From the IMG/VR virus record IMGVR_UViG_3300034072_000758, positions 427,030 to 491,029 of that record: a stretch of DNA of 64,000 bases; one strand, 5' to 3'. Origin of the DNA: a virus. Below are positions 7,882 to 53,296 of this stretch, piece after piece (positions within the stretch are counted from its first letter, which is position 1; every line of letters starts with the position of its first letter). Position numbers and translations under genes: made by a program. Below the pieces are notes generated by a model that did no database searches, had not been told where the DNA came from, and worked only from the letters and a program-made list of their open reading frames with translations.

Positions 7882-9216
7882 TCACACGAACCAGTCGGTT
7901 CCTTCTTTTGTATCCAATAGGGTGACGCCGCGTTCGGCCAAAGCATTCCGAATGATGTCCGCCATGACCCAATCTTTACCGGCTCTTGCCAGATTGCGGT
8001 CGTAGATCAGACCTTCGATGATTTCACGCTCGTCCTTAGACACATTCTTGAACCAATCCTCGTATCGATGATTGAGGACACCAAGCAATTGCGCAGCCGC
8101 AACGAACTCGGACTTGGTTTCCGGCTTCATCAAACTGGATAATTCAGCCAGAGCCAAAGGCGTATTCAGATCATCATGAAGATGATCGAGGAATGATTGT
8201 GGCACCGGAACTTCGTGCGTGGTGAGCTTTGCCGTCTGGCGCAGGAAGGCATAGTAGCCATCCAGCCGGTTCTTCGTGGTTTGAAGAAGTTCTGGGGTCC
8301 AATTCAAGACGGTTCTATAATGCGCTGAGAGCAACGCCAAGCGCACGATTTCCCCATCCCATTCCTTTACGAGATCGTGGACCAACACGACATTCCCTAC
8401 CGACTTGGACATCTTGCCGTTATTGGTCAGGAACTCGTTATGCATCCAGTAGCGGGAATACTCGTGATTATGGCCGCAATGACCTTGAGCACATAACCCC
8501 TGAGAGATTTCATTCTCATGGTGCGGAAAGGCCAAGTCTATACCCCCGCCATGAATGTCGATAGGAAGACCCAGATTGGCTTCAATCATGGCCGAGCACT
8601 CAATGTGCCAACCGGGGCGTCCAGCACCCCACGGACTTTCCCAAGCCGGTTCACCGGGCTTCGACGGTTTCCATAGTACGAAGTCTTTTTGGTCGCGCTT
8701 ATACGACACCTCACCGATCCGGCTTTCGGCTTCGTCATCCGAACCATTGGAGAAAACACCATGATCCGGGTATGAATCCACGTCAAACAAAACGTGACCT
8801 TCCGACACATACGCATGGCCGTTCTTGATCAGACGCACAATCATGTCGATCATGGCCGGGATATGGTTGGTCGCCAGAGGTTCAATGGGAGGCCGTAGGA
8901 CGCCCACGGAGGCCATGTCTTGACGATATATGTCCGTGTAGCGTTCAGCAATAACCTTGTAGTCCACGCCCTCCTGAGAGGCTTTCTGGATGATTTTATC
9001 ATCGATGTCGGTGATGTTCCGAGCATAGATGACATGGTTATTTCCATACTTGTGGCGGAGAACACGAAACAGCAAATCGAATACGACCGCTGGGCGGGCA
9101 TTGCCGATATGTGCGTGATTATATACCGTAGGACCACAGACGTACATCGTAATCCGGTTAGGATTTCGAGGAACGAAAGTTTCTTTGGATCGAGTTTTGC
9201 TGTTGAATATCTTCAT
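7882..9216 (-). CDS. cysS: cysteinyl-tRNA synthetase (class I)
   Basis: HIGH motif (NHAHIGNARP), KMSKS motif (GKMSKSVGN), and a length typical of bacterial CysRS. Start trimmed to MKIFNSK with an AGGA RBS. The upstream in-frame extension to 9255 cannot be excluded. Confidence 0.85.
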   Translation of the reverse strand: MKIFNSKTRSKETFVPRNPNRITMYVCGPTVYNHAHIGNARPAVVFDLLFRVLRHKYGNNHVIYARNITDIDDKIIQKASQEGVDYKVIAERYTDIYRQDMASVGVLRPPIEPLATNHIPAMIDMIVRLIKNGHAYVSEGHVLFDVDSYPDHGVFSNGSDDEAESRIGEVSYKRDQKDFVLWKPSKPGEPAWESPWGAGRPGWHIECSAMIEANLGLPIDIHGGGIDLAFPHHENEISQGLCAQGHCGHNHEYSRYWMHNEFLTNNGKMSKSVGNVVLVHDLVKEWDGEIVRLALLSAHYRTVLNWTPELLQTTKNRLDGYYAFLRQTAKLTTHEVPVPQSFLDHLHDDLNTPLALAELSSLMKPETKSEFVAAAQLLGVLNHRYEDWFKNVSKDEREIIEGLIYDRNLARAGKDWVMADIIRNALAERGVTLLDTKEGTDWFV

Positions 9217-9261
9217 AGATAAATTCCTAACATAACCAATGACTGTTGGCAACACTATGGC

Positions 9262-29033: not shown

Positions 29034-30791
29034 ATGTCCACTATGATCAAAGTTGCCTCAGTGCAATTCAATCCCGTTGTCGGCGACGTATTCGGCAATG
29101 CGGAGCGTATGCTTCAACTATACATTGAAGCGGCAAAGACCGCCGATCTGGTAGTCTTCCCCGAATGCTCCATCAGTGGGTATCCCATCGAAGACCTCGC
29201 GTTGAAGGCGGATTTCATCGACAGATGTATCGAAGCGCGAAAATCATTCATTGATGCCGTGTATCTTTCCAAGGAAAAGGCCGGTGTCATTTTCGGATGC
29301 CCCAACCTAAACACCAATGGTAAAACCACAAACTCCGCATTCGCGGTCGATCCGGTTCACCAAGACTATTCGATCTTTGATAAACAACGCCTCCCGAATT
29401 ATGGCGTGTTCGATGAAGTCCGTACTTTTGCCCCAGCAACCAAGCCTCAACCAACATGGCAGTTCCGCGATCTCAAGATCGGCATTCTGATCTGCGAAGA
29501 TGCGTGGCATTCCGGTTCGTTGAGCGGATGTATTGGTGAGCATTTCCCCAACCTGATGATCAGCATCAATGGTTCGCCGTTCGAAATCGGCAAGAATGTC
29601 ATCCGCAAGAATGTAATCGTAGATCGTATCCACGAACTGTTCGAAGTCGGTGATGCGTTCGGCGTCCCCTTCGTCTATACCAACATGGTTGGTGGTCAAG
29701 ACGAGATCGTATTTGATGGTAATTCGTTTGTCATCGACAAGAATGGCTACCGGGCTGTGCCTACCTTCGAAGAAGGTGTTCACTATTTCGATGTCTCGCT
29801 GGACTCGTTCCAACCGGGCGTTTACGATGTCGAGCCTTCCAGCATTGCCGATGTCTACAAATGTCTTGTCACCGGCACGAGAGATTTCTTCGGAAAGCAA
29901 GGTTTCGTGTCCGGCGTTCTCGGCTATTCAGGTGGTGTAGATTCGGGTCTGGTGGCCGCTATCCTTGTGGATGCGCAAGGACCGAAAAATGCCAATCTCG
30001 TGTCTCTTCCGTCGAAGTTCTCGGACCAAGCCTCGAAAGACGATGCCTTGGAAGGCGCTATTCGTTTGGGCGCTAACTATCGGTCGATCAGCATTGAACC
30101 GATTGTCCAAGCCCTACGCGATGCCTACAAGCCGTCTGAATACAATCCAAACAGCATGTCCATGATGAATGGCGCTCGTAAAAATACTGGCACGATCTTC
30201 ACCACGGACCCGGAGTTGAGCAACTATTCGGGTGAACTGACCGGCGTGGCGGACGAAAACATCCAAGCTCGTGCTCGTGGTAATATCCTGATGGCTATCT
30301 CTAACCAAGAAGGCCACATGGTTCTGTCCACCGGTAATAAGTCGGAAGTGAGCCTCGGTTTCTGTACGATTTATGGTGACATGTCGGGTGGTTACAACCC
30401 GATCAAGGATTGCCCGAAGACGCTGGTATGGGCGCTATGTTTGTGGCGAAATCAAGCTGATCCGGCTGAATACGGCTTCCTTGGTCCCAAGGGTGAAGTT
30501 GTTCCGCAAGAGATCATCGACAAAAAGCCGGACGCTGGCTTGGCTGAAAATTCCAAAGGCGATCCGTTCGACTACCGCAACATCACCGATCCAATCCTCA
30601 ATATTTTGGTGGACAAGGCCGGTTCGGTTCAAGACGTGATCGATGCTGGTTTTGATCCTGCGGAAGCACAGCGCCACTACAAGCTTCTTCTGCGCTCGGA
30701 ATACAAGCGCCGCCAAGCATGTCCCGGCATCAAGATCACTTCCAAATTACACGGGCGGGATCGACGTATCCCAATCGTCTATCGAGAATAA
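29034..30791 (+). CDS. nadE: glutamine-dependent NAD+ synthetase (N-terminal CN-hydrolase/nitrilase domain + C-terminal NAD synthetase domain)
   Basis: Nitrilase catalytic residues (FPE..K..ILICEDAWH). ATP-pyrophosphatase P-loop LGYSGGVDSGL. 585 aa. Confidence 0.85.
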   Translation: MSTMIKVASVQFNPVVGDVFGNAERMLQLYIEAAKTADLVVFPECSISGYPIEDLALKADFIDRCIEARKSFIDAVYLSKEKAGVIFGCPNLNTNGKTTNSAFAVDPVHQDYSIFDKQRLPNYGVFDEVRTFAPATKPQPTWQFRDLKIGILICEDAWHSGSLSGCIGEHFPNLMISINGSPFEIGKNVIRKNVIVDRIHELFEVGDAFGVPFVYTNMVGGQDEIVFDGNSFVIDKNGYRAVPTFEEGVHYFDVSLDSFQPGVYDVEPSSIADVYKCLVTGTRDFFGKQGFVSGVLGYSGGVDSGLVAAILVDAQGPKNANLVSLPSKFSDQASKDDALEGAIRLGANYRSISIEPIVQALRDAYKPSEYNPNSMSMMNGARKNTGTIFTTDPELSNYSGELTGVADENIQARARGNILMAISNQEGHMVLSTGNKSEVSLGFCTIYGDMSGGYNPIKDCPKTLVWALCLWRNQADPAEYGFLGPKGEVVPQEIIDKKPDAGLAENSKGDPFDYRNITDPILNILVDKAGSVQDVIDAGFDPAEAQRHYKLLLRSEYKRRQACPGIKITSKLHGRDRRIPIVYRE

Positions 30792-37709: not shown

Positions 37710-38240
37710 ATGGGTACTCGTCATTTGGTGGTTGTTCGCTTGAACAATGAAGTAAAAGTCGCTCAGTATGGTCAATTCGACGGTTATATGAGCGGGGCTG
37801 GTAGAACAATACAACGTATTTTGTCGTTTGCTGATTTGAATTTGCTAAAAGAGTTAGTAGCAAAATGTTGGTGGATCACAGATGATGAACACAACAAGAT
37901 GATGGCTGATCTTGGTGTCAAAAGTAATGACGGTTGGATTAGCTTGGATGACAGTAAAAAAATTGAAAAAGCTTATCCGCATCTTCATCGCAATTGTAGC
38001 GCCGAAGTCATCACTGAAATTCTCAACAGCGAAAACGGATTACCGCTTCAAAATTCATACGATTTTGGAGAAGATGGACTTTTTTGCGAATACACCTATA
38101 CGGTCGATCTCGACAATGATACATTGACCGCACAAAGCGGGGGTTTGGACGGCAAAGTCCTTTTCCAAGGACCAATCAACACGCTCCACACAATCCCACC
38201 ATTTGAAGACCCCAAAGACGAAGAAGAAGACGAAGAATGA
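37710..38240 (+). CDS. hypothetical protein with acidic C-terminus ([10 protein letters not shown])
   Basis: 176-aa ORF with an ATGA overlap with aspS. Confidence 0.5.
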
Positions 38241-40018
38241 CCAAGACAAACATGCGAACGCAAACCTGTGGTGAATTGACCGTGGCCTATACTGGCGACA
38301 CGGTGAGCCTGTGTGGCTGGATTCACCGCAAGCGAGATCATGGCGGCTTGCTGTTCATCGACTTACGTGACAATTACGGACTGACCCAGATCGTAATGCA
38401 AAAGACCGCTGCCTGTTTCTCGGTGGTGGAGCACCTTCGCCAAGAAAGCGTAATTCGCGTAATCGGTAAGGTCGTAACGAGAACGGAAAATACACAAAAC
38501 CCGAACCTCGCAACCGGGCAGATCGAAGTCATCGCTTCGGAAATTACAGTTCTGTCGGAAGCCTCGGAACTTCCAGTGCCAGTGTTCGGTGATGTTCAGT
38601 ATCCAGAAGACCAACGTTTGAAGCATCGCTATCTCGATCTTCGCCGTGACGAACTCCACTCAAACATCCTGCTGCGCTCCAAGATCATTAGCTACCTGCG
38701 TAGGTTCATGGAGGGCGAAGGCTTTACTGAGTTTCAGACGCCTATTCTGACCGCATCTTCCCCAGAAGGCGCGCGCGACTTCCTCATTCCATCACGCCTT
38801 CATCCCGGCAAATTTTATGCCCTGCCTCAAGCACCACAACAATTCAAGCAACTTTTGATGGTGTCTGGCTTTGACCGCTATTTCCAGATCGCACCTTGCT
38901 TCCGCGACGAAGCCGCCCGTGCTGACCGGTCGCCGGGTGAGTTCTATCAACTCGATATTGAAATGTCTTTCGTCAATCAGGAAGACGTTTTCTCTCAGGC
39001 TGAACGTATCCTTCATTCGACCTTTACTGAGTTCTCGAACGGGAAGACCGTAAGTTCGTACCCATTCCAGCGAATCACCTACAAGGACTCGATGGAAAAA
39101 TACGGCAACGATAAGCCCGATCTTCGTAACCCAATCGTCATGAGCGATGCTTCGCTTTATTTCGTGAACGGCGGCTTCGGTCTGTTTGAGAAAATGGCCA
39201 GCGACGGCAAAAGCTCGATCTGGGCTATTCCGGTCAAGGGCAATGGAAACATCAATCGCAAATTCTGCGACAAGATGAACTCTTGGGCCATCGAAGAAGG
39301 CCAAAAAGGTATGGGATATATCTATTGGAACGAAGAAGGCGCACAAGGCCCAATCGCCAAGAATCTCCATGCCGATAAGCTGGGACAATTGGAAGCCGCC
39401 TATGAATTGGGTAACGGTGATGCCATATTCTTCGTGGCCGGGATCAAAAAGGATTTCCTCAAGTTCTGCGGATTCGCCCGCACCAAGATCGCCGAAGAAC
39501 TCGGTCTGATCAAGGATGATCATTTCCATTTCTGCTGGGTGGTGGATTTCCCAATGTTCGAACTATCGAACGAAGGCAAAATCGATTTCGCCCACAATCC
39601 GTTCTCTATGCCACAAGGCGAAATGGAAGCTCTGGAAACCAAGAACCCGCTGGATATTCTGGCCTATCAGTACGACATCGTGTGTAACGGCATCGAACTG
39701 TCCTCCGGGGCTATTCGTAACCACCGACCCGACATCATGCTCAAGGCTTTTGAAATCGCTGGTTACAAGGCCGAGGAAGTGGAAGAACGCTTCGGCGGTA
39801 TGTTGAACGCATTCCGCTATGGCGCGCCTCCCCACGGTGGTCTGGCTCCCGGTGTTGACCGCATGGTCATGATGCTGGCTAATAAATCCTCCATCCGAGA
39901 CATCATCGCTTTCCCGCTGAATCAGCAAGGACAAGATTTGATGATGAACGCACCATCGGAAGTCACGGATAAACAACTCAAAGAGTTGAACATCCGAACA
40001 TACAAGCCATTGAGCTAA
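38237..40018 (+). CDS. aspS: aspartyl-tRNA synthetase (class II, bacterial-type)
   Basis: N-terminal OB anticodon-binding fold. Class II motif 2 (FRDE...R...F.Q.D.E) and motif 3 ([14 protein letters not shown]). 593 aa. Confidence 0.85.
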
Positions 40019-40449: not shown

Positions 40450-41676
40450 TTACAGCCACACTTTCCCATATGCTGATTGAAGAATAGACGGGATGAACAC
40501 TTTACCACCTTCGTCCTGATAGTTTTCCAGAACAGCCAACAAAGTTCTACCAACCGCCAGTCCAGACCCATTTAAGGTGTGGACTGGTTCTTTTTTGCCT
40601 TGAGCATTGGTGAAGCGAGTCTTCATGCGATTGGCTTGGAAATCGCCACAATTGGATACCGAGCTAATCTCACGATAAGTTTTCTGTGATGGCACCCAAA
40701 CTTCGATGTCGTAAGTCTTTTGTGCTCCGAAGCCCATGTCACCCGCGCATAATAACATGATGCGATATTTTATACCCAATGAAGTGAGGATGTTTTCAGC
40801 ACAAGATAACATGAACTCGTGCTCTTGTGCCGACTTCTCAGGCGTAGTGATCGACACCATTTCAACTTTGTTAAATTGATGCTGGCGTAAGATGCCATGC
40901 GTGTCCTTACCAGCGCTTCCGGCTTCGGATCGGAAACATGGGGTCAGCGCAGTTAGACGAAGGGGTAATTCACCCTCAGCCAAAATCTTATCAGCGACAT
41001 AATTTGTCAAAGTCACTTCGGCGGTCGGGATCAGAAAATGTTCATCAGTGTTCACCGAGTACAGGTCATCGATGAATTTAGGAAGCTGACCAGTTCCATA
41101 CAAGGCCGTGTCTTTCACCAGCAACGGAGTGGAGCATTCCTCGAATCCATTTTTAACCTGACATTCAAGCATATACTGCCCGATAACTCGTTCGAGACGT
41201 GCCACGGGGCCGCGCATGAATGAGAAGCGTGTGCCAGACATCGCTACCCCCGCTGATATATCGAGGCCGTATTTGCTCCCGATCTCAACATGGTCTTTCG
41301 GGTCTTTTATGGAACGGAGCGGAATATCATTGACACGAACCAATTGATTGTCGTGCTCGTCTTTTCCAACCGGAACGTCATTGGCTGGGACATTTGGGAT
41401 GTCGAACAAATAGTCTTCAAGTTCCCCGGCCAGATAATCGACCAAGCCTTCGGCAGTAGTTATTTCGGCCTTCACCGCCACCCCGGTTTCATGGTCTTTA
41501 TTCCGCGCGGCATCCTTGCGCTTGGCGTACAAAGCCTCAAGATCAGTCAACGATTTACGATGATCTGTATCCTTTTTGAGAATGTCCGAAACTATCCGAG
41601 ACCCGTCAAGCCCTCTCTTATTCAACCCGCTGGCAACGGCTTCTGGATTCTCGCGGATGGTCTTTATATTGATCAT
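40450..41676 (-). CDS. serS: seryl-tRNA synthetase (class II)
   Basis: N-terminal coiled-coil tRNA-binding arm. Motif 2 (FRSEAGSAGKDTHGILRQHQFNKVE). Motif 3 (GSGLAVGRTLLAVLENYQ). 408 aa. Confidence 0.85.
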   Translation of the reverse strand: MINIKTIRENPEAVASGLNKRGLDGSRIVSDILKKDTDHRKSLTDLEALYAKRKDAARNKDHETGVAVKAEITTAEGLVDYLAGELEDYLFDIPNVPANDVPVGKDEHDNQLVRVNDIPLRSIKDPKDHVEIGSKYGLDISAGVAMSGTRFSFMRGPVARLERVIGQYMLECQVKNGFEECSTPLLVKDTALYGTGQLPKFIDDLYSVNTDEHFLIPTAEVTLTNYVADKILAEGELPLRLTALTPCFRSEAGSAGKDTHGILRQHQFNKVEMVSITTPEKSAQEHEFMLSCAENILTSLGIKYRIMLLCAGDMGFGAQKTYDIEVWVPSQKTYREISSVSNCGDFQANRMKTRFTNAQGKKEPVHTLNGSGLAVGRTLLAVLENYQDEGGKVFIPSILQSAYGKVWL

Positions 41677-44602: not shown

Positions 44603-44904
44603 TGGACAAGACACAAGTTGCGCTGGGGATCGTGCGCGAGGCTCATTCGCTGTCTCCCGAAGAGTTCCAAAATCGCTATCCGCCGAAGACTGATCGGATG
44701 TATGATCCGAACGACCCCTTCTACATGACTTCGACGGATTATTTGAACCAATATAATCCCAACCGTCTCCATTGTGCGGATGGCGGCGCTTGTCACCACG
44801 CTTGCGCTTCGAACGAGGCCGGGGCCTGTTTCCGACGTGATACTTGCGGGCCGCTCAGTAATAGTGGCTGGGAAATGAAAGACGGAAAGTGGGTACAAGA
44901 ATGA
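44602..44904 (+). CDS. small Cys-rich protein (CADGGACHHACASNEAGACFRRDTC)
   Basis: 100-aa ORF with an ATGA overlap. Cys cluster. Confidence 0.45.
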   Translation: MDKTQVALGIVREAHSLSPEEFQNRYPPKTDRMYDPNDPFYMTSTDYLNQYNPNRLHCADGGACHHACASNEAGACFRRDTCGPLSNSGWEMKDGKWVQE

Positions 44905-45905
44905 CCATCGTTCATAAACTTCAAGAGCACGGACTAATCAGTCCGCCGAAATGGTTGCCGGATAACCTCGCGTATCTGGTCATCATGGGATCGATGGCTT
45001 ACGGCGTCAATACGGACACGTCCGATATGGATGTGTATGGCTTTGCTGTGCCTCCCAAGGAGATCGTATTTCCACACCTGACCGGCTATATCCCCGGCTT
45101 TGGTAACCACCCGGAAAAGTTCGATCAGTGGTCCGAGCATCACATCAGACAGAACCAGAAGGAATACGACTTCTCGGTCTATTCCATCGTGCGATATTTC
45201 GATCTGTGTAGGGAAAACAACCCCAACATGATTGATAGCCTTTTCGTGCCGGACAACTGCGTGATGTTCCAATCCAAAGTCGGTGAGATCGTCCGCGAGA
45301 ACAAACACGCCTTCCTTCACAAGGGGGCTTTCCACAAATACAAAGGCTATGCTTACGCGCAAATCGGGCGTTACAAGTCTCTGTCCCCGGAGAGCAAGCT
45401 TGGCTCCATCCGTATCAAGATGGGTGAAGAAGGTTTGGAGTTCGATGCCTTCAAAGAAAAGGTGGATAGTGGGGAGCTTGTTCTATCAGCTTCGATGAAG
45501 CGTGATTTCGACGGCCTGAACGAACGCCAAATCAACACCATCAAGGAAGGTGTGGATCGCAAGGCTATGTATCACGTGGTTCGTTTGATGAACGAGCTTG
45601 AGCAAATCCTGACAACAGGGACGCTTGATCTCCAAATCAATCGGGAACAGCTTAAGTCTATTCGTCGTGGCGAGTGGACACCTGAGCAAATCTTTGAATA
45701 CTTCGAGCGCAAGGAAGCCGAACTCGACGGCATCCAATTGACCTCGAACGTGCTTCCACATGGCCCTAACATGAAACAGCTTCACAGCATTCTGGTAAGC
45801 TGTCTGGAAGAGGTTTATGGGTCTCTGGACAACATGATCTCCCAGAATAAAGATGATCGATTACTGGTCGAATTGAAAGGTCTCGTGAAAAAGTTCGACG
45901 TATAG
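44889..45905 (+). CDS. Pol-beta-superfamily nucleotidyltransferase-domain protein (cGAS/DncV/MNT/OAS-type GS...DxD fold)
   Basis: N-terminal signature GSMAYGVNTDTSDMDVYGF (G[GS]-x9-13-[DE]h[DE]h). Helical C-terminal domain. 338 aa. Confidence 0.5.
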   Translation: MGTRMTIVHKLQEHGLISPPKWLPDNLAYLVIMGSMAYGVNTDTSDMDVYGFAVPPKEIVFPHLTGYIPGFGNHPEKFDQWSEHHIRQNQKEYDFSVYSIVRYFDLCRENNPNMIDSLFVPDNCVMFQSKVGEIVRENKHAFLHKGAFHKYKGYAYAQIGRYKSLSPESKLGSIRIKMGEEGLEFDAFKEKVDSGELVLSASMKRDFDGLNERQINTIKEGVDRKAMYHVVRLMNELEQILTTGTLDLQINREQLKSIRRGEWTPEQIFEYFERKEAELDGIQLTSNVLPHGPNMKQLHSILVSCLEEVYGSLDNMISQNKDDRLLVELKGLVKKFDV

Positions 45906-49346: not shown

Positions 49347-49675
49347 ATGTATAGCAACACGTCCATTAAAAGATTATCTATACATTCCACCGAGGGCTTG
49401 TCCGTGTGCGGGAAATTAGTGTACATCAAACGATTATCATTGAACGTAAATTCATACTTATATTCTTGAATACCATTATTTCTAAGCTTATACGTGATGT
49501 CATCAATAAAAATCTCCCAAATAAAAACCGAATCAATTTTGTCTATTTCAATACGTTTATACTTATGTCCATAGCCCTCACGACATTGCGTCCATTTACC
49601 CAAGCTCTCTATTTGCTTAAAAGCATTTTCAAGAGACCTGAGTAAATGTCGTTGTTCCTGCGGTGTGTAAATCAT
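49343..49675 (-). CDS. hypothetical protein (110 aa) translationally coupled to the K+ channel gene
   Basis: ORF 49343..49894 trimmed to the Met at the ATGA overlap. Confidence 0.45.
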   Translation of the reverse strand: MIYTPQEQRHLLRSLENAFKQIESLGKWTQCREGYGHKYKRIEIDKIDSVFIWEIFIDDITYKLRNNGIQEYKYEFTFNDNRLMYTNFPHTDKPSVECIDNLLMDVLLYI

Positions 49676-50016
49676 TTCTTTTGAGACCGAATGTATTTCA
49701 GAATTTCTTCTTGTTCTTCGTGCGTGAACTCGTTGCGATTCTCGACCATCGTACTGATGATGCGACCGATCAACAAAGGCATAATGAAAAGAAGAATGAC
49801 GTGCATCAAGCCAGTCGCAATAAGCCGCCCAGCCAAAGTTGTGGGATACATGTCGCCGTAGCCGACCGTAGAGGCAGTCACGACGCACCACCAAAGACTA
49901 TCCCAGAAAGTCTTTCCTTCGGCCCACGAGTAGCCCAGAGCCGCCAGAAACACGATCAATACATACAGAGCAATAAGCTCACGGATCGTGTTTGTCGCCT
50001 TGATCAAATACTTCAT
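49672..50016 (-). CDS. viral-type potassium channel (2-TM/P-loop, Kcv-like, 114 aa)
   Basis: K+ selectivity filter TVGYGD (WWCVVTASTVGYGDMYPTT) between two hydrophobic helices. ORF 49672..50073 trimmed to the Met with an AAGGAGA RBS. Confidence 0.7.
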   Translation of the reverse strand: MKYLIKATNTIRELIALYVLIVFLAALGYSWAEGKTFWDSLWWCVVTASTVGYGDMYPTTLAGRLIATGLMHVILLFIMPLLIGRIISTMVENRNEFTHEEQEEILKYIRSQKK

Positions 50017-50075
50017 ACTATCTCCTTTTCTAATAGAGAAGCGCAGCATACTACTTTTTAATGGAAGCATCAAGA

Positions 50076-50357
50076 TCAGCCATGACGATATAATGCGTCA
50101 GACAACCAACCATCCCAATCATCGAATGGAGGAATGTTGTTGAGATCGACCACGAAGTAACGCATCAGGGCATTATCGACTGTGGCTTGCGCTCTGGCCT
50201 TCCAAACAGCTTTCGCTTCCTCGGAAGATGGATAGATACCTACCAAGTCGATTTTAGAAACATCTTTGAATTGGAGAGAATCGACGGAGACCAACTCTCC
50301 CCCAATCACCAAATACAACCACTGTCTTGTGTGAAAGCTGTCGGTTTCGTTGGTCAT
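50076..50357 (-). CDS. hypothetical protein
   Basis: ORF 50076..50414 trimmed to the first Met outside tRNA-Trp. Confidence 0.45.
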   Translation of the reverse strand: MTNETDSFHTRQWLYLVIGGELVSVDSLQFKDVSKIDLVGIYPSSEEAKAVWKARAQATVDNALMRYFVVDLNNIPPFDDWDGWLSDALYRHG

Positions 50358-50383
50358 ATTCCAGTCCTTGTGATCAAAGTATT

Positions 50384-50460
50384 TTGGCAGGGGTGGAGAG
50401 ATTCGAACTCCCATCGCGCAGTTTTGGAGACTGCCGCTCTAACCGTTGGAGCTACACCCC
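50384..50460 (-). tRNA. tRNA-Trp (anticodon CCA), CCA encoded
   Basis: Minus strand: acceptor AGGGGTG/CACCCCT, D-arm GCTC-CAACGGTTA-GAGC, anticodon stem GCAGT/ACTGC with loop CTCCAAA, T-arm GGGAG-TTCGAAT-CTCTC. Confidence 0.75.
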
Positions 50461-50473
50461 TATAGGCGATCAA

Positions 50474-50752
50474 TCACTTGACCGCAAAGGAAGAAATGAG
50501 CTTACAACTCGTTTTTACAAACCCTACATAACGAGGGTCCGAGAAACGGTCGAAGTCATTCAAATAATCGAAGTCCGCCTTGTCGATTTCATACACATGA
50601 TATTCGACGGCTGGTGAATGCTGTTCTACAACCGTAAAACTACGGTCGCTTCTCAAGCCACGTTCTTTATCTGCGATCTTCACAGCTTCAATCGGCCTTA
50701 AGTTATTCGTCAAGGCGACGATATGATTTTGATTCAAAACAGCGGTACGCAT
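50474..50752 (-). CDS. hypothetical protein
   Basis: 92-aa ORF between tRNAs. Confidence 0.45.
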   Translation of the reverse strand: MRTAVLNQNHIVALTNNLRPIEAVKIADKERGLRSDRSFTVVEQHSPAVEYHVYEIDKADFDYLNDFDRFSDPRYVGFVKTSCKLISSFAVK

Positions 50753-50812
50753 ACTATTACTCCTTACCCGACATTAATAATTTATTTACATTATCAAAGT
50801 CAATTTTATTTT

Positions 50813-50903
50813 TGGAGGACGTGGTGGGACTCGAACCCACGGTGGTCTATGTTACGACAACAGGTTAAGAGCCTGTCCCTCTCGCCGCTGAGGTGACACG
50901 TCC
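50813..50903 (-). tRNA. atypical type-II (long variable arm) tRNA with lysine anticodon CUU; chimeric derivative of the canonical tRNA-Lys(CUU) at 51517-51593
   Basis: 5' GGACGTG-TCA-CCTC-AGCGGCGA-GAGG-G-ACAGG-CTCTTAA-CCTGT-[TGTCGTAACATAGACCACC]-GTGGG-TTCGAGT-CCCAC-CACGTCC-T-CCA. Acceptor stem, T-arm and anticodon loop are identical to the canonical Lys(CUU). It adds a Ser/Tyr-like D-arm and a 19-nt variable arm. Confidence 0.55.
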
Positions 50904-50997
50904 GTATCAAAAATGTAGGGAGATCGGGTTCACCACAATCATGCTGGTACACAAGGTCGTCACATGATTAGTAACCCACTAGGGCATGGCTCCAGCT

Positions 50998-51074
50998 TGG
51001 TGAACACGGTGGGGGTCGAACCCACGACCTACTGATTAAAAGTCAGTTGCTCTACCTACTGAGCTACGTGTTCG
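50998..51074 (-). tRNA. tRNA-Lys (anticodon UUU), canonical, CCA encoded
   Basis: GAACACG-TA-GCTC-AGTAGGTA-GAGC-A-ACTGA-CTTTTAA-TCAGT-AGGTC-GTGGG-TTCGACC-CCCAC-CGTGTTC-A-CCA. Confidence 0.75.
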
Positions 51075-51154
51075 TGCGCCCTGTCGGACTCGAACCGACA
51101 CTCGTTAGAAGCAGATTTTAAGTCTGCCGGGTCTACCAATTTCCCCAAGGGCGC
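51075..51154 (-). tRNA. tRNA-Leu (anticodon UAA), type II
   Basis: Acceptor GCGCCCT/AGGGCGC, Leu-type D-arm, anticodon stem GCAGA/TCTGC with loop CTTAAAA, 13-nt variable arm, T-arm GTCGG-TTCGAGT-CCGAC. Confidence 0.7.
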
Positions 51155-51204
51155 TTAGGTACTTTTCTTGTAAACATCAAAGATGATTTTGGCAACATCT
51201 TTGT

Positions 51205-51280
51205 TGGCGAGGATAGAAGGATTCGAACCTCCGACACATGCGTTCGAAGCGCATTGCTCTGTCCACTGAGCTATATCCCC
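51205..51280 (-). tRNA. tRNA-Arg (anticodon UCG), CCA encoded
   Basis: GGGGATA-TA-GCTC-AGTGGACA-GAGC-A-ATGCG-CTTCGAA-CGCAT-GTGTC-GGAGG-TTCGAAT-CCTTC-TATCCTC-G-CCA. Confidence 0.7.
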
Positions 51281-51281
51281 G

Positions 51282-51366
51282 TGCGCCGAGAGGGATTCGA
51301 ACCCTCATACCATTACGGTGTCCGTTTTTGAAACGGGTGCGTCTACCAAAGTTCCGCCACCAGCGC
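51282..51366 (-). tRNA. tRNA-Leu (anticodon CAA), type II
   Basis: Acceptor GCGCTGG/TCGGCGC (two G-U pairs), D-arm GCG-GAACTTTGGTAGA-CGC, anticodon loop TTCAAAA, T-arm GAGGG-TTCGAAT-CCCTC. Confidence 0.65.
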
Positions 51367-51417
51367 ATAGAAAACCTTTAATATAGATCGTTATCCACAT
51401 CCATATTAAAGGTTATG

Positions 51418-51501
51418 AGGATGTAGAGGGACTCGAACCCCCGATGGTCTTTTGACAACGGATTAAAAGCCCGTCCCTCTCGCCGCTGAGGTGATACATC
51501 C
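51418..51501 (-). tRNA. atypical type-II (long variable arm) tRNA with lysine anticodon UUU
   Basis: 5' GGATGTA-TCA-CCTC-AGCGGCGA-GAGG-G-ACGGG-CTTTTAA-TCCGT-[TGTCAAAAGACCATC]-GGGGG-TTCGAGT-CCCTC-TACATCC-T. The 22-nt D-region TCACCTCAGCGGCGAGAGGGAC is identical to the other atypical tRNA. Confidence 0.55.
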
Positions 51502-51516
51502 ATAGTAGTATTTGTT

Positions 51517-51593
51517 TGGAGGACGTGGTGGGACTCGAACCCACAACATTCGGTTTAAGAGACCGACGCTCTAACCATTGTAGCTACACGTCC
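51517..51593 (-). tRNA. tRNA-Lys (anticodon CUU), canonical, CCA encoded
   Basis: GGACGTG-TA-GCTA-CAATGGTTA-GAGC-G-TCGGT-CTCTTAA-ACCGA-ATGTT-GTGGG-TTCGAGT-CCCAC-CACGTCC-T-CCA. Confidence 0.75.
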
Positions 51594-51610
51594 GTATCAA
51601 ACAAATACTG

Positions 51611-51683
51611 CGCGGATCAAGGGACTCGAACCCATAACCCTCTGTTTAGAAGACAGATGCTCGTCCAATTGAGCTTCATCCGC
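51611..51683 (-). tRNA. tRNA-Arg (anticodon UCU)
   Basis: Acceptor GCGGATG/GATCCGC (one mismatch), anticodon stem TCTGT/ACAGA with loop CTTCTAA, T-loop TTCGAGT. Stems are slightly imperfect. Confidence 0.55.
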
Positions 51684-51692
51684 ATAGTAGTG

Positions 51693-51778
51693 TGTGCCGA
51701 GGGGGACTCGAACCCCCACGCCCATTACAGGCCCCGGTTTCTGAAACCGGGAAGTCTACCAAATTTCATCATCAGCAC
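51693..51778 (-). tRNA. tRNA-Leu (anticodon CAG), type II
   Basis: Acceptor GTGCTGA/TCGGCAC, anticodon stem CCGGT/ACCGG with loop TTCAGAA, long variable arm, T-arm GGGGG-TTCGAGT-CCCCC. Confidence 0.65.
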
Positions 51779-51803
51779 GTATGCTCTTTCGAGCAAAGTC
51801 TTG

Positions 51804-51883
51804 TACGGGTGAGAGGACTCGAACCTCCACGATTGCTCGCTAGAACCTAAACCTAGTGCGTCTACCAGTTTCGCCACACCCGC
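51804..51883 (-). tRNA. tRNA-Leu (anticodon UAG), type II
   Basis: Acceptor GCGGGTG/CACCCGT, D-arm GCG-AAACTGGTAGA-CGC, anticodon stem CTAGG/TCTAG with loop TTTAGGT, T-arm GGAGG-TTCGAGT-CCTCT. Confidence 0.65.
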
Positions 51884-51884
51884 G

Positions 51885-51957
51885 CACTGCCAGTAGGACT
51901 CGAACCTACAACCTTCTGATTCGTAATCAGATGCTCATCCAGTTGAGCTATGGCAGC
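51885..51957 (-). tRNA. tRNA-Arg (anticodon ACG), copy 1
   Basis: GCTGCCA-TA-GCTC-AACTGGAT-GAGC-A-TCTGA-TTACGAA-TCAGA-AGGTT-GTAGG-TTCGAGT-CCTAC-TGGCAGT-G. Confidence 0.7.
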
Positions 51958-52081
51958 ATAAAGCAACAAGACGGTGGGGTTCGAACCCACAACCTTTCGG
52001 CTCCGACTTTGACCGCAACGGCTTTTCGCAAACCATTACGTGCGTGTGTATACCCATTCCACCACGCCAAGTTACTTCAAG
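51958..52081 (-). other. unassigned 124-nt spacer inside the tRNA array containing a T-arm-like palindrome GTGGGGTTCGAACCCAC but no foldable acceptor/anticodon arms
   Basis: Could not be folded into a cloverleaf on either strand. All other spacers in the array are 0-15 nt. Confidence 0.3.
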
Positions 52082-52166
52082 TGTCCATGAAAGGATTCGA
52101 ACCTTCACGCCCATTACAGGCAACAGCCTCTCAAGCTGCCGTGGCTACCAATTACACCACACGGAC
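52082..52166 (-). tRNA. tRNA-Leu (anticodon GAG), type II
   Basis: Acceptor GTCCGTG/CATGGAC, D-arm GTG-TAATTGGTAGC-CAC, anticodon stem GCAGC/GCTGT with loop TTGAGAG, T-arm GAAGG-TTCGAAT-CCTTT. Confidence 0.65.
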
Positions 52167-52175
52167 ATACGCAAG

Positions 52176-52292
52176 TGCGTTCGGGAGGATTCGAACCTCC
52201 AACCTCTATACTCGTTTGATCGTCATCCGACCAGTATAGCGGTATCCAACCCTCTAATGGGCTGGCGTGGCTACCAATTTCACCACGAGCGC
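52176..52292 (-). tRNA. atypical 117-nt Leu-like type-II tRNA with a non-canonical anticodon region (CCAGCCC-ATTAGA-GGGTTGG) and an oversized variable region; possible pseudogene, suppressor-like or insert-containing tRNA
   Basis: Acceptor GCGCTCG/CGAACGC (one C-A mismatch), Leu-type D-arm TG-GTG-AAATTGGTAGC-CAC, T-arm GGAGG-TTCGAAT-CCTCC. The middle section has a 7-bp stem, a 6-nt loop and a second 7-bp hairpin CTATACT...AGTATAG. Confidence 0.4.
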
Positions 52293-52302
52293 ATATTACG
52301 AG

Positions 52303-52377
52303 CGGGACTGGCAGGATTCGAACCTGCGACCTTCGGTTTCGTAGACCGGCGCTCTTATTCCGCTGAGCTACAGTCCC
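52303..52377 (-). tRNA. tRNA-Arg (anticodon ACG), copy 2 (different body)
   Basis: GGGACTG-TA-GCTC-AGCGGAATAA-GAGC-G-CCGGT-CTACGAA-ACCGA-AGGTC-GCAGG-TTCGAAT-CCTGC-CAGTCCC-G. Confidence 0.6.
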
Positions 52378-52720: not shown

Positions 52721-53296
52721 TTACTTTACGATCTTGAAACCGTGCTTCTTGTAGTATGGAACGTTCTCGAAATCGATGACCGACACCATAAACTTACCAT
52801 AGCCGTTGCTGACCATGACTTGTTCGACCGTGGCCACGACCTGATCCACGACCGACTTGACCGCCTTCGCCGCTTTGATCTTCGGCTTGATGGTTTCGAC
52901 AGCGGGTTCAACCGACGCTTCATCTTCAATAACGCGCGGCGCGATTTCGGCTGCGACCGTTTCGATGCGAGTGTCGATGACATTGATGGAATCGCCGAAC
53001 TTGGAGACTTCACGATCCAGACGCTTGAGTTCGAGGTTTTCGACCGCGTTGTTATGACCGTTACCATCCTTATGAACGACTTCATCATTCTTCGTCGCGC
53101 CGAGGAAGCAGATGGCTATCAGACGATGGAGGCCGACCTTGGAATGGAGGGCGACGTTCTTGAGACTGATACGGAGCTTATCGCCATCCTTCTGATAGGA
53201 TAGTTCGGTGCCGTCCTTCTTGAAGACGCGACCATCGGAAGTGGCAAGATATTGTTCGTCCGCGAAATAGAAACGGACGCGCTTGACGCTCGACAT
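52721..53296 (-). mobile_element. freestanding HNH homing endonuclease gene adjacent to the tRNA array
   Basis: HNH motif (HKDGNGHNNAVENLE), N-terminal homing-endonuclease-associated domain. 191 aa. Confidence 0.7.

Follow-up and report, generated by a model that had tools for sequence, protein, structure and literature searches.

Two unusual transfer RNA (tRNA) genes are encoded in the stretch of viral DNA analyzed here, which covers 64,000 nucleotides (nt; positions 427,030 to 491,029 of the IMG/VR record IMGVR_UViG_3300034072_000758) and is called the window in its full length. Both genes carry lysine anticodons, and both have the enlarged variable (V) region which, as a textbook rule, is restricted to the tRNAs for Leu, Ser, bacterial Tyr, and Sec. 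They belong to a family of long tRNA-Lys genes from large alpha-proteobacterial phages, which breaks this class II rule, since Lys anticodons are found on a conserved class II core of the tRNA-Tyr type in 63 unique sequences; that the family is real and originates from a tRNA-Tyr scaffold is close to certain. With moderate confidence, we regard the long genes as working tRNA-Lys, i.e., as lysine-accepting decoders of AAA and AAG codons built on the body of a tRNA-Tyr.

Architecture of the two long tRNA-Lys genes

As judged by ARAGORN, the window contains 25 tRNA genes, 14 of which form an array on the minus strand (50385-52377). An original prediction had placed two long tRNAs with Lys anticodons on this strand by folding them by hand, and both are called by ARAGORN as well as by the Rfam model RF00005, which puts the anticodons at the same places as the hand fold. 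The long tRNA-Lys(CUU) gene (50813..50903, minus strand) comprises 91 nt with an encoded CCA and the discriminator U73 and scores 52.1 bits with RF00005. The long tRNA-Lys(UUU) gene (51417..51501, minus strand) comprises 85 nt in the ARAGORN call and scores 49.3 bits at 51418-51501; it measures 84 nt up to U73 at 51418, and C74 is the only base of the CCA that is encoded. Both genes lie above the RF00005 gathering score of 29 bits, and all four helices are intact.

In the long CUU gene, an acceptor stem of 7 base pairs (bp) is joined by a 3-nt connector to a D stem of 4 bp (CCUC/GAGG); the anticodon stem (5 bp) carries the loop CUCUUAA and is followed by a V region of 19 nt and the T-arm GUGGG-UUCGAGU-CCCAC. 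The minimum free energy (MFE) fold of this gene is a cloverleaf with an additional V hairpin (ensemble frequency 0.60). The long UUU gene shows the same architecture, with the anticodon loop CUUUUAA and a V region of 15 nt. The reading of these two loops as CUU and UUU is confirmed by both programs, which place the anticodon CUU (reading AAG) at 50867..50869 and the anticodon UUU (reading AAA/AAG) at 51465..51467, both on the minus strand. The variable stem-loops of 15-19 nt expected from the hand fold are likewise recovered: the V region of the long CUU gene (50841..50859, minus strand) reads U-GUC-GUAACAUA-GAC-CACC, in which a 3-bp stem encloses a loop of 8 nt and a 3' tail of 4 nt is unpaired, and that of the long UUU gene (51443..51457, minus strand) reads U-GUC-AAAA-GAC-CAUC, where the 3-bp stem encloses a loop of 4 nt and the unpaired 3' tail again measures 4 nt. 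The 22-nt D region TCACCTCAGCGGCGAGAGGGAC, a variant of the tRNA-Tyr-type D-arm, is indeed identical in the two genes (50875..50896 and 51473..51494, both on the minus strand). In the RF00005 alignment, the extra bases appear as an insertion in the variable region and as one additional base after U8.

Two canonical class I tRNA-Lys genes accompany the long ones in the ARAGORN calls, as had also been predicted, namely a tRNA-Lys(UUU) of 76 nt with A73 (50998..51073, minus strand; RF00005 78 bits) and a tRNA-Lys(CUU) of 77 nt with U73 (51517..51593, minus strand; RF00005 65.2 bits). The latter is the gene of which the long CUU gene had been described as an otherwise faithful copy, and an alignment of the two including their flanks (alignment A2) bears this out: they have in common 16 nt on the 5' side (leader TTTGATAC, acceptor strand, and U8) and 30 nt on the 3' side (T-arm, acceptor strand, U73, CCA, and AAA), while the differences are confined to the D-arm, the anticodon stem, and the V region. 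Judging from this pattern, the long CUU gene is a modular hybrid, assembled from the neighboring canonical Lys(CUU) gene and a long-type middle by recombination within the tRNA array. The original prediction had spoken of an engineered derivative rather than decay; the genes are in fact under selection and not decaying, and "engineered" is better read as natural recombination of this kind.

Distribution of the family

Relatives of the two genes were searched in IMG/VR, in GTDB (one genome per species), and in metagenomes of the Joint Genome Institute (JGI) with a 16-nt D-arm word and with a degenerate pattern that demanded a Lys anticodon loop between the D loop and a long V region, followed by the T loop. 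The exact 22-nt D region TCACCTCAGCGGCGAGAGGGAC had no match in IMG/VR, so that shorter or degenerate patterns were required. With the 16-mer CCTCAGCGGCGAGAGG, 7 of 10 matches lay outside tRNAs and represent chance, and 10 of 14 genome matches of the degenerate pattern as well as several of its metagenome matches were without a tRNA. The tRNA matches were called by ARAGORN as tRNA-Lys(CUU or UUU) of 81-94 nt and are located nearly always in multi-tRNA arrays, on contigs of 130-608 kilobases (kb). They amount to 67 deduplicated long tRNA-Lys sequences, 63 of which have a common core architecture and are distributed over 63 loci (L-numbers such as L026 or L136 are used below as labels of retrieved loci).

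The cultured carriers include the whole phiCbK group of Caulobacter phages (phiCbK, Karma, Magneto, Swift, Rogue, CcrBL10, and others), Brevundimonas jumbo phages, Rhodobacter phage RcXuper, and the Ruegeria phages DSS3P8 and V10. As lineages, the family thus covers the Dolichocephalovirinae, the Brevundimonas jumbo phages, RcXuper, DSS3P8, and contigs of 400-600 kb, and 26 Caulobacter-phage records carry it. Four true matches were obtained in bacterial assemblies, two from Methyloligellaceae, one from Bradyrhizobium, and one from a metagenome-assembled genome (MAG) of an unclassified member of the Pseudomonadota; all of them lie in dense tRNA arrays, which is the arrangement of the phage contigs. 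Both long isoacceptors occur together in 16 loci, and canonical tRNA-Lys copies are found beside the long genes in 25 of the 63 loci. In CcrRogue, for which a count of 23 tRNAs has been given (Gill et al., PMC3556154), inspection of all 23 annotated tRNAs showed the two long genes to be the only tRNA-Lys.

The family sits in well-studied cultured phages, phiCbK and its relatives, where it is annotated as ordinary tRNA-Lys; the GenBank label of its genes in cultured phages is plain "tRNA-Lys". Deviating entries occur in phage Ccr32, whose long Lys(UUU) gene (KY555146.1 50277-50367, corresponding to L026 696-786) is labelled tRNA-Ser with "codon recognized UCG", and in four recent Caulobacter-phage records in which the long Lys(UUU) gene is unannotated (PV231352, PV231354, PV231355, and PV745554). 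A full-text search of the literature did not retrieve any description of a tRNA-Lys with a long variable region in phages, and neither a review of non-canonical tRNAs (PMC7609411) nor the phiCbK genome paper (PMC3556154) contains a class II-shaped phage tRNA-Lys. The family has apparently not been described before; because the genes themselves were already present in public records, what is new is the recognition of their architecture, origin, and distribution.

Structure, covariation, and selection

The chimeric class II-type body seen in the window is not a random product, as the same architecture recurs in 63 unique sequences from elsewhere and is accompanied by covariation. Throughout these 63 sequences, each position of the acceptor and T stems is paired in 63/63 and the anticodon stem in 57-63 of 63, and the three stems show several pair types per position with abundant compensatory changes. 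Such changes have maintained all four helices of the cloverleaf as well as the short V stem. Alignment A1, which consists of the 14 members with a 15-nt V region including the long UUU gene of the window, was folded by RNAalifold without guidance into a cloverleaf with a 3-bp V hairpin. In this structure, 99.4% of the cells are paired, and double changes occur in 17 of 23 pairs, including all three pairs of the V stem. Values as high as these were not reached in any of 500 column shuffles, and the pairing fell to 35-52% when the partners were slid by 1-3 columns.

The V stems vary between phages and still remain paired (GUC/GAC, AGC/GCU, UGC/GCA, GGC/GCC, CAGGU/GCCUG, CAAGC/GCUUG), and the hairpins are often closed by GNRA loops. 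A V stem is absent from 23 of the 63 members, which contain an unpaired V loop of 11-12 nt instead (UAUACAAACAYC). Because these members are stemless, the common feature is an enlarged V region ending in CAYC rather than the stem as such; the V region measures 11-22 nt across the family, and the CAYC end is present in 52/63. CCA is also encoded in 52 members. Judging from the maintained pairing, the family genes are evidently tRNAs under purifying selection and not pseudogenes.

The long genes classify as class II tRNAs, whose variable region has at least 10 nt (PMC7609411). A D stem of 3 bp with a pair other than Watson-Crick at position 13:22 was considered as a second mark of this class. 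This position is G.A or C.A in 41 of the 63 members and A.A in one, and it is C-G in the window genes, whose V regions have the 19 and 15 nt given above. Two other interpretations of the shape were examined and ruled out. An intron or decay as the source of the V insert is at odds with the covarying V stem, and the 8/4, 9/3, or 8/5 geometry of allo-tRNA-like or Sec-like molecules does not apply, as the members are 7/5 throughout; in those inspected by eye, U8 is opposed by C or U next to the T stem, so that no further pair can be added to the acceptor helix.

A tRNA-Tyr scaffold with a Lys-type acceptor stem

The Tyr-type core of the family is made up of a D region of 20 nt, whose stem has 3 bp and whose loop reads AG[C/U]GGCGA, and of the enlarged V region; combined with it is a Lys anticodon loop of the form C-U-[C/U]UU-A-A, with CUU or UUU as anticodon in 63/63. 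The parts of the tRNA body were compared with 467 other unique tRNAs of the same arrays, E. coli tRNA-Tyr (with verified sequence), and the tRNA-Tyr of phage EcS1. The D region proved to be nearest to tRNA-Tyr in 47 of the 63 members, although just 6 of the references are tRNA-Tyr, while the acceptor stem with the discriminator is nearest to tRNA-Lys in 41 members. The commonest long-Lys D region has 18 of 20 positions in common with that of EcS1 tRNA-Tyr, TGACCCGAGTGGCAAAGGGT. When IMG/VR was scanned for the D-arm alone (CCCGAGYGGCGAAGGG) with the anticodon left unconstrained, 23 new tRNAs were retrieved, 19 of which are tRNA-Tyr(GUA) and contain, like the family, one additional base after U8; the other four are one Lys, one Asn(GUU), and two odd calls. 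In the pooled Tyr set (n=17), the V region ends in ACACC or ACATC in 11 cases, and A73 is present in 16. Reciprocally, a BLAST search with a tRNA-Tyr query matched the long tRNA-Lys(UUU) of Caulobacter phages. A search of plasmids with the tRNA-Tyr scaffold gave matches from Bifidobacterium only, none of which bears on alpha-proteobacterial hosts.

Taken together, the results for the D region, the acceptor stem, the D-arm scan, and BLAST identify the family as a tRNA-Tyr scaffold equipped with a Lys anticodon and a Lys-type acceptor stem, in which A73 has been replaced by U73 in most members (U73 in 40/63, A73 in 21/63, C and G in one each). The only anticodon base common to Tyr and Lys is U35. 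The D-arm had originally been called "Ser/Tyr-like", and the nearest-isotype comparison and the D-arm scan retain the Tyr half of this description and discard the Ser half. Like the family, bacterial and phage tRNA-Tyr have a 20-nt D region CCCGAG[C/U]GGCGAAGGG with an extra base between U8 and the D stem, which is also present in the tRNA-Tyr of E. coli phage EcS1 and of Streptomyces phages, and a V region composed of one unpaired base, a short stem, and an unpaired 3' tail ending in ACAYC, together with G1-C72 and U35. The family differs from them by the anticodon CUU/UUU instead of GUA, by U73 instead of A73 in most cases, by its Lys-like acceptor stems, and by the many members without a V stem.

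An 85-nt tRNA-Asn(GUU) at locus L121 shows the same Tyr-type D-arm (CCCGAGTGGCGAAGGG) and a 15-nt V region. Its anticodon GUU lies a single step away from Tyr GUA as well as from Lys UUU, and the gene may therefore represent an intermediate or a parallel remolding event. The arrays with long tRNA-Lys contain few tRNA-Tyr genes, none of which uses the CCCGAGCGGCGAAGGG D-arm (n=4: L014 2793-2886; L043; L050; L090), and the phiCbK-like phages are without any tRNA-Tyr (Gill 2012, PMC3556154). This difference in the D-arm may reflect a separation of identities, in a sample of only four genes.

Amino acid identity

Lys identity rests on the anticodon triplet, the discriminator being marginal for the class I form of lysyl-tRNA synthetase (LysRS), and G2.U71 is essential for class I LysRS in Borrelia (PMC9976931). 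The Lys anticodon (U35, U36, and U34 or C34) is present in 63/63 members and in both window genes. The A73 used by the class II LysRS of E. coli is absent from both window genes, which have U73; this base is also found in the canonical tRNA-Lys(CUU) of the window and in 6 of 39 canonical tRNA-Lys of these arrays. G2.U71 occurs in 8/63 long tRNA-Lys and 10/44 other tRNA-Lys, as compared to 10/551 non-Lys tRNAs. On balance, and going by the identity rules of other organisms, lysylation is probably the outcome and the most likely one.

The original prediction had proposed deliberate mischarging with serine, by which a seryl-tRNA synthetase (SerRS) of the host or phage would read the long variable arm whatever the anticodon and turn Lys codons into Ser. 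A SerRS is indeed encoded in the window at the predicted position (40450-41676, minus strand; PF00587 2e-43 plus Seryl_tRNA_N), and allo-tRNAs and anticodon mutants of tRNA-Ser provide precedents. Ser identity depends on the V arm, G73, and acceptor pairs (PMC9976931), but G73 is present in only 1 of the 63 members and in neither window gene, as opposed to 12/15 tRNA-Ser of the same arrays. These tRNA-Ser also have a different D-arm and V stems of 4-6 bp, flanked at either end by roughly one unpaired base, whereas the window genes have a 3-bp V stem with one unpaired base 5' and four 3', and 23/63 members contain an unpaired loop of 11-12 nt. Moreover, homologues of the window's SerRS were obtained from 111 phage records, none of which belongs to a Caulobacter phage, although 26 Caulobacter-phage records carry the family. 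The absence of G73, the short or absent V stem, and the lack of SerRS in the Caulobacter phages therefore do not support Lys-to-Ser mischarging, which was already difficult to reconcile with a Tyr scaffold and which we regard as very improbable.

Leu identity needs A73 and A15-U48 (PMC9976931). The window genes have U73, their D loop begins with A14-G15, and their V region ends in C, which gives G15-C48; the tRNA-Leu of these arrays show A73 in 74/74 and a D-arm unlike that of the family.

The case of tyrosine is closer, as the critical Tyr determinants are A73 and U35, plus G1-C72 in bacteria (PMC9976931). Within the family, U35 is present in 63/63, G1-C72 in 56/63, and A73 in 21/63 members, while G34 and A36 are absent; the window genes have U35, G1-C72, and the class II scaffold and lack A73. 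If tyrosyl-tRNA synthetase (TyrRS) charged the long tRNAs by means of this Tyr-type scaffold and these determinants, AAA and AAG would partly be read as tyrosine, which might serve proteome diversification or host poisoning. We consider this unlikely, because U73 is found in both window genes and in 40/63 members but A73 in 16 of the 17 Tyr tRNAs of the same scaffold, a pattern which looks like selection away from Tyr identity. It is further opposed by the Lys-like acceptor stems, which in the window are identical to that of canonical tRNA-Lys, by the long genes being the only phage tRNA-Lys of CcrRogue, and by the harm that misread Lys codons would do to the phage's own proteins.

Proposed decoding role and the LysRS of the hosts

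As working tRNA-Lys, the long tRNAs would arise by transcription and processing of the tRNA array, receive lysine from the host LysRS, which recognizes the anticodon (U35, U36), and deliver it at AAA and AAG codons; they would thereby supplement the tRNA-Lys supply of the phage or, in phiCbK-type phages, constitute it. The class II-shaped core might be tolerated since the alpha-proteobacterial hosts mostly use a class I LysRS. The two classes of synthetases come to the acceptor stem from opposite sides, the class II enzymes from that of the variable region. An enlarged V region would accordingly be acceptable on a tRNA-Lys if the charging enzyme is of class I, because this enzyme comes from the side away from the V region.

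Class I LysRS is present in most alpha-proteobacteria, explicitly in Caulobacter, Rhodobacter, Rhodopseudomonas, and Mesorhizobium, while Sinorhizobium and Agrobacterium have reverted to a class II LysRS (PMC1475646). The cultured hosts of the family are all alpha-proteobacteria of the Caulobacterales or Rhodobacterales, and the MAG matches belong to the Hyphomicrobiales. All four host genera fall into orders with reported class I LysRS, and the enzyme is documented for Caulobacter and Rhodobacter. BLAST did not reveal any full-length family member in phages of other hosts, at a sensitivity that recovered an E. coli phage tRNA-Tyr at 73% identity.

Possible reasons for the exchange of the tRNA body

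The exchange of the body may have been selected because it removes features of the D loop and core by which a host factor reads ordinary tRNA-Lys, while the anticodon required by LysRS stays in place. Candidates for such readers are the tRNA-Lys-directed immune nucleases of the AriB or Schlafen type, and escape from them is our favored, if speculative, guess, drawn by analogy with known systems. The AriB nuclease of PARIS cuts its prime target tRNA-Lys(UUU) at C40/A41 and, according to mutational data and an AlphaFold model, also reads U16-U17 in the D loop, and phage T5 escapes AriB with a variant tRNA-Lys carrying substitutions at the positions read (PMC12409363). A bacterial Schlafen prefers tRNA-Lys(UUU) as well (PMC13056530). 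The D loop of the family is without U16-U17, the bases read by AriB. That the whole body serves as a disguise, under which the tRNAs are lysylated by the class I LysRS of the host and at the same time invisible to tRNA-Lys nucleases reading the D loop and core, is a tentative proposal that may well prove wrong.

In a role as decoy, which the original prediction had named as its alternative with regard to PrrC-like anticodon nucleases, the tRNAs would remain unused in translation and titrate a host nuclease or toxin directed at tRNA-Lys, thereby shielding the real pool. It would fit the anticodon loop, the usual recognition site of such nucleases, being fully Lys-like on a different body, the canonical copies standing alongside in 25/63 loci, and the recurrent targeting of tRNA-Lys by nucleases. 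The family has nevertheless kept the features needed for charging and for EF-Tu, i.e., an acceptor stem paired in 63/63, CCA in 52/63, and a conserved T-arm; both isoacceptors are kept, and CcrRogue encodes no tRNA-Lys apart from the long genes. As stoichiometric titration of a catalytic nuclease would presumably also be inefficient, we regard a decoy as quite unlikely and favor a nuclease-resistant working tRNA.

Several points weigh against a lysine-decoding tRNA in nuclease-evading disguise. The identity rules behind the proposed aminoacylation were established in other organisms, and the family counts are biased toward Lys because all search patterns demanded GGCGA in the D loop and two of them also a Lys anticodon. 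TyrRS could charge the members with A73, because 21/63 combine it with U35, G1-C72, and the Tyr scaffold. The whole-array megablast against 50,697 phage records gave no match, and the phage of the window is therefore without a close cultured relative; the nearest ones, with 34-36% identity along a portion of a single structural protein, are Sinorhizobium phage Phosso and Agrobacterium phage Atu_ph07, which infect hosts with class II LysRS. Many phages, including that of the window, keep canonical tRNA-Lys beside the long genes, and simple supply is insufficient as an explanation because these copies are kept. The anticodon stem-loop, where AriB cuts, is not systematically changed. PrrC reads mainly the anticodon loop and is itself an unlikely driver because this loop is unchanged. 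Finally, the driver may not be Lys-specific because other isotypes of the same arrays also show enlarged V regions, namely Asn (7/28), Ile (6/35), Cys (3/14), and Met (3/24), and a mirror image of the long tRNA-Lys exists in short tRNA-Leu of 76-79 nt with a 5-nt V loop, a class I-type D-arm, and A73, which account for 22 of 74 unique tRNA-Leu (L008 8345-8423, 8602-8679, and 8997-9073; L013, L020, L029, L033, L035, and L043).

The long-V tRNAs of other isotypes keep isotype-typical discriminators, for example U73 in Cys and G73 in Asp, Gln, and most Asn. In the same phages, long V regions with class I anticodons are seen in Ile(UAU) (89-94 nt), Cys(GCA) (84-89 nt), Met/Ile2(CAU) (87-90 nt), and several Asn(GUU); such genes are located at L009 7782-7870, L014 1187-1280, L035, L090, L012 5230-5313, and L043, and in CcrRogue at 102172-102260 and 103384-103470 (corresponding to L136 46172-46260 and 47384-47470). 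Because other isotypes can be long and some tRNA-Leu short, plasticity of the V region is general in these phage tRNA sets, and the Lys family is its most widespread and coherent case.

The long genes might then be neutral variants, that is, tRNA-Lys that arose from tRNA-Tyr by anticodon switching (alloacceptor remolding) and persist as ordinary redundant tRNA-Lys. Remolding of tRNA genes by anticodon switches is a known process, and the sporadic long V regions in Asn, Ile, Cys, Met, and others with isotype-typical discriminators, as well as the 22/74 short tRNA-Leu, would agree with it. However, the family extends across unrelated phage lineages with a conserved core and is kept beside canonical copies, and this spread, conservation, and retention argue for a specific advantage over drift; in our estimate, neutrality has a small chance of being the correct account.

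A further alternative places the charged long tRNAs outside the ribosome, as aminoacyl donors for a tRNA-dependent transferase. Phage enzymes are known to use aminoacyl-tRNA outside translation, such as Gly-tRNA in the case of phage Mu Mom (PMC13219725), and the distinctive body could act as a private handle. Such a donor would not need the two isoacceptors with exact decoding loops that are kept, however, and no candidate transferase is present among the window's open reading frames (ORFs) that were scanned; we think it highly improbable.

Relation to other non-canonical tRNAs

The nev-tRNAs of nematodes resemble the family in combining a class II shape with class I anticodons, and a Lys(CUU) version exists among them (PMC3333845). 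They are derived from tRNA-Leu, have A73 in all 115 cases, and are charged with leucine (PMC3333845); in contrast to the family, they are eukaryotic, weakly expressed mistranslators which keep the Leu determinants. The phage family is derived from tRNA-Tyr, has mostly lost A73, has acquired Lys-type acceptor stems, and provides the only phage tRNA-Lys in some phages. With their Tyr-type scaffold, U73, and phage source, the window genes fall outside the nev-tRNAs. The allo-tRNAs and the (8/4) tRNA-Ser/His are likewise V-arm tRNAs with diverse anticodons and occur in bacteria as well as in alpha-proteobacterial phage tRNA clusters (Mukai et al., PMC5389517), but the geometry of allo-tRNAs is 8/4 or 9/3, their V arms are long and of the Ser type, and their identity is Ser or Ala (PMC5389517), whereas the family is strictly 7/5 with a Tyr-type core and a short or absent V stem. 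These earlier exceptions are mistranslators or rarities, whereas the family is large and conserved.

By analogy, the most likely functional model may be the tRNA-Lys(UUU) of phage T5, which also is a phage tRNA-Lys that differs from that of the host at positions read by an immune tRNase (PMC11464382, PMC12409363). It neutralizes PARIS, and differences in the anticodon stem and at U16 of the D loop rescue translation (PMC11464382, PMC12409363). The T5 molecule is an ordinary class I tRNA with point substitutions, whereas the family exchanges the whole D-arm and V core. Alloacceptor remolding, in which the gene of one isotype gains the anticodon and then the identity elements of another, offers a parallel for the origin, and a switch from GUA to NUU keeps U35. 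To our knowledge, the cases known so far, mostly mitochondrial or bacterial duplicates, are switches between like-shaped class I tRNAs; in the family, a class II core has been carried into a class I family and has spread over many phage lineages.

If the disguise applies, the family would represent the first case in nature of a class II tRNA that serves a class I amino acid and keeps its cognate identity, and the distribution of a tRNA architecture would be tied to the class of the charging synthetase. The family further represents a natural experiment on how LysRS (especially of class I), EF-Tu, and the ribosome handle a foreign tRNA core, and on how identity is rewired in an isotype switch (A73 to U73 plus replacement of the acceptor stem). 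It may give insight into how phages escape from the growing list of tRNA-Lys-directed defense nucleases, and it is testable in the genetically tractable Caulobacter/phiCbK system. A tRNA-Lys on a Tyr scaffold may also serve as an orthogonal tRNA chassis.

Other features of the window and the arrays

In addition to SerRS, the window encodes CysRS (7882-9255, minus strand), AspRS with a GAD domain (38237-40018, plus strand), and a glutamine-dependent NAD synthase (29034-30791, plus strand). For a phage, a translation module with three aminoacyl-tRNA synthetases, the NAD synthase, and 25 tRNA genes is unusually rich. Ribonucleotide reductase and virion proteins are also encoded, and together with AspRS, CysRS, and NAD synthase they indicate that the window stems from a large phage. 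Pfam and PHROG scans of about 30 ORFs of the window did not detect a LysRS, a TyrRS, an RNA ligase, or a recognizable tRNase, and the only match related to RNA repair is a nucleotidyltransferase of the RNA-repair-associated RlaP family (44889-45905, plus strand; Pfam 3.6e-16, phrog_388 9e-48). This protein is possibly linked to the repair of tRNA 3' ends because the long UUU gene and the tRNA-Leu genes of the window are without an encoded CCA; gp316 of CcrRogue is likewise annotated as a nucleotidyltransferase.

The tRNA array is flanked by genes for a potassium-channel-like protein (49672-50073, minus strand; two-transmembrane Ion_trans_2, 1e-14), a DUF4170 protein (50076-50414, minus strand; 2e-21), and an HNH endonuclease (52721-53296, minus strand; 1e-5). 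Within the array, a tRNA-Leu-like element of 117 nt (52176-52292, minus strand) scores 34.8 bits with RF00005 and is not called by ARAGORN. Its acceptor and D-arm are of the Leu type, the anticodon stem of 7 bp carries the 6-nt loop AUUAGA, the V arm spans about 42 nt, and the MFE fold has a z-score of -4.9. The element may represent either a tRNA-Leu(UAG) that has degenerated or a tRNA-derived RNA of different function. A gap in the array (51958-52080, minus strand) contains a Leu-type D-arm and a good T-arm (GTGGGTTCGAACCCCAC), but its acceptor stem is interrupted by two U.U mismatches and a normal anticodon loop is missing; it is probably a decayed tRNA gene. Some contigs with long tRNA-Lys also encode tRNAs with the anticodon CUA, which ARAGORN calls "Pyl" (L015 2912-2988 and 4963-5038; L019 1016-1092); these resemble amber suppressors and hint at reassignment or suppression of stop codons in those phages.

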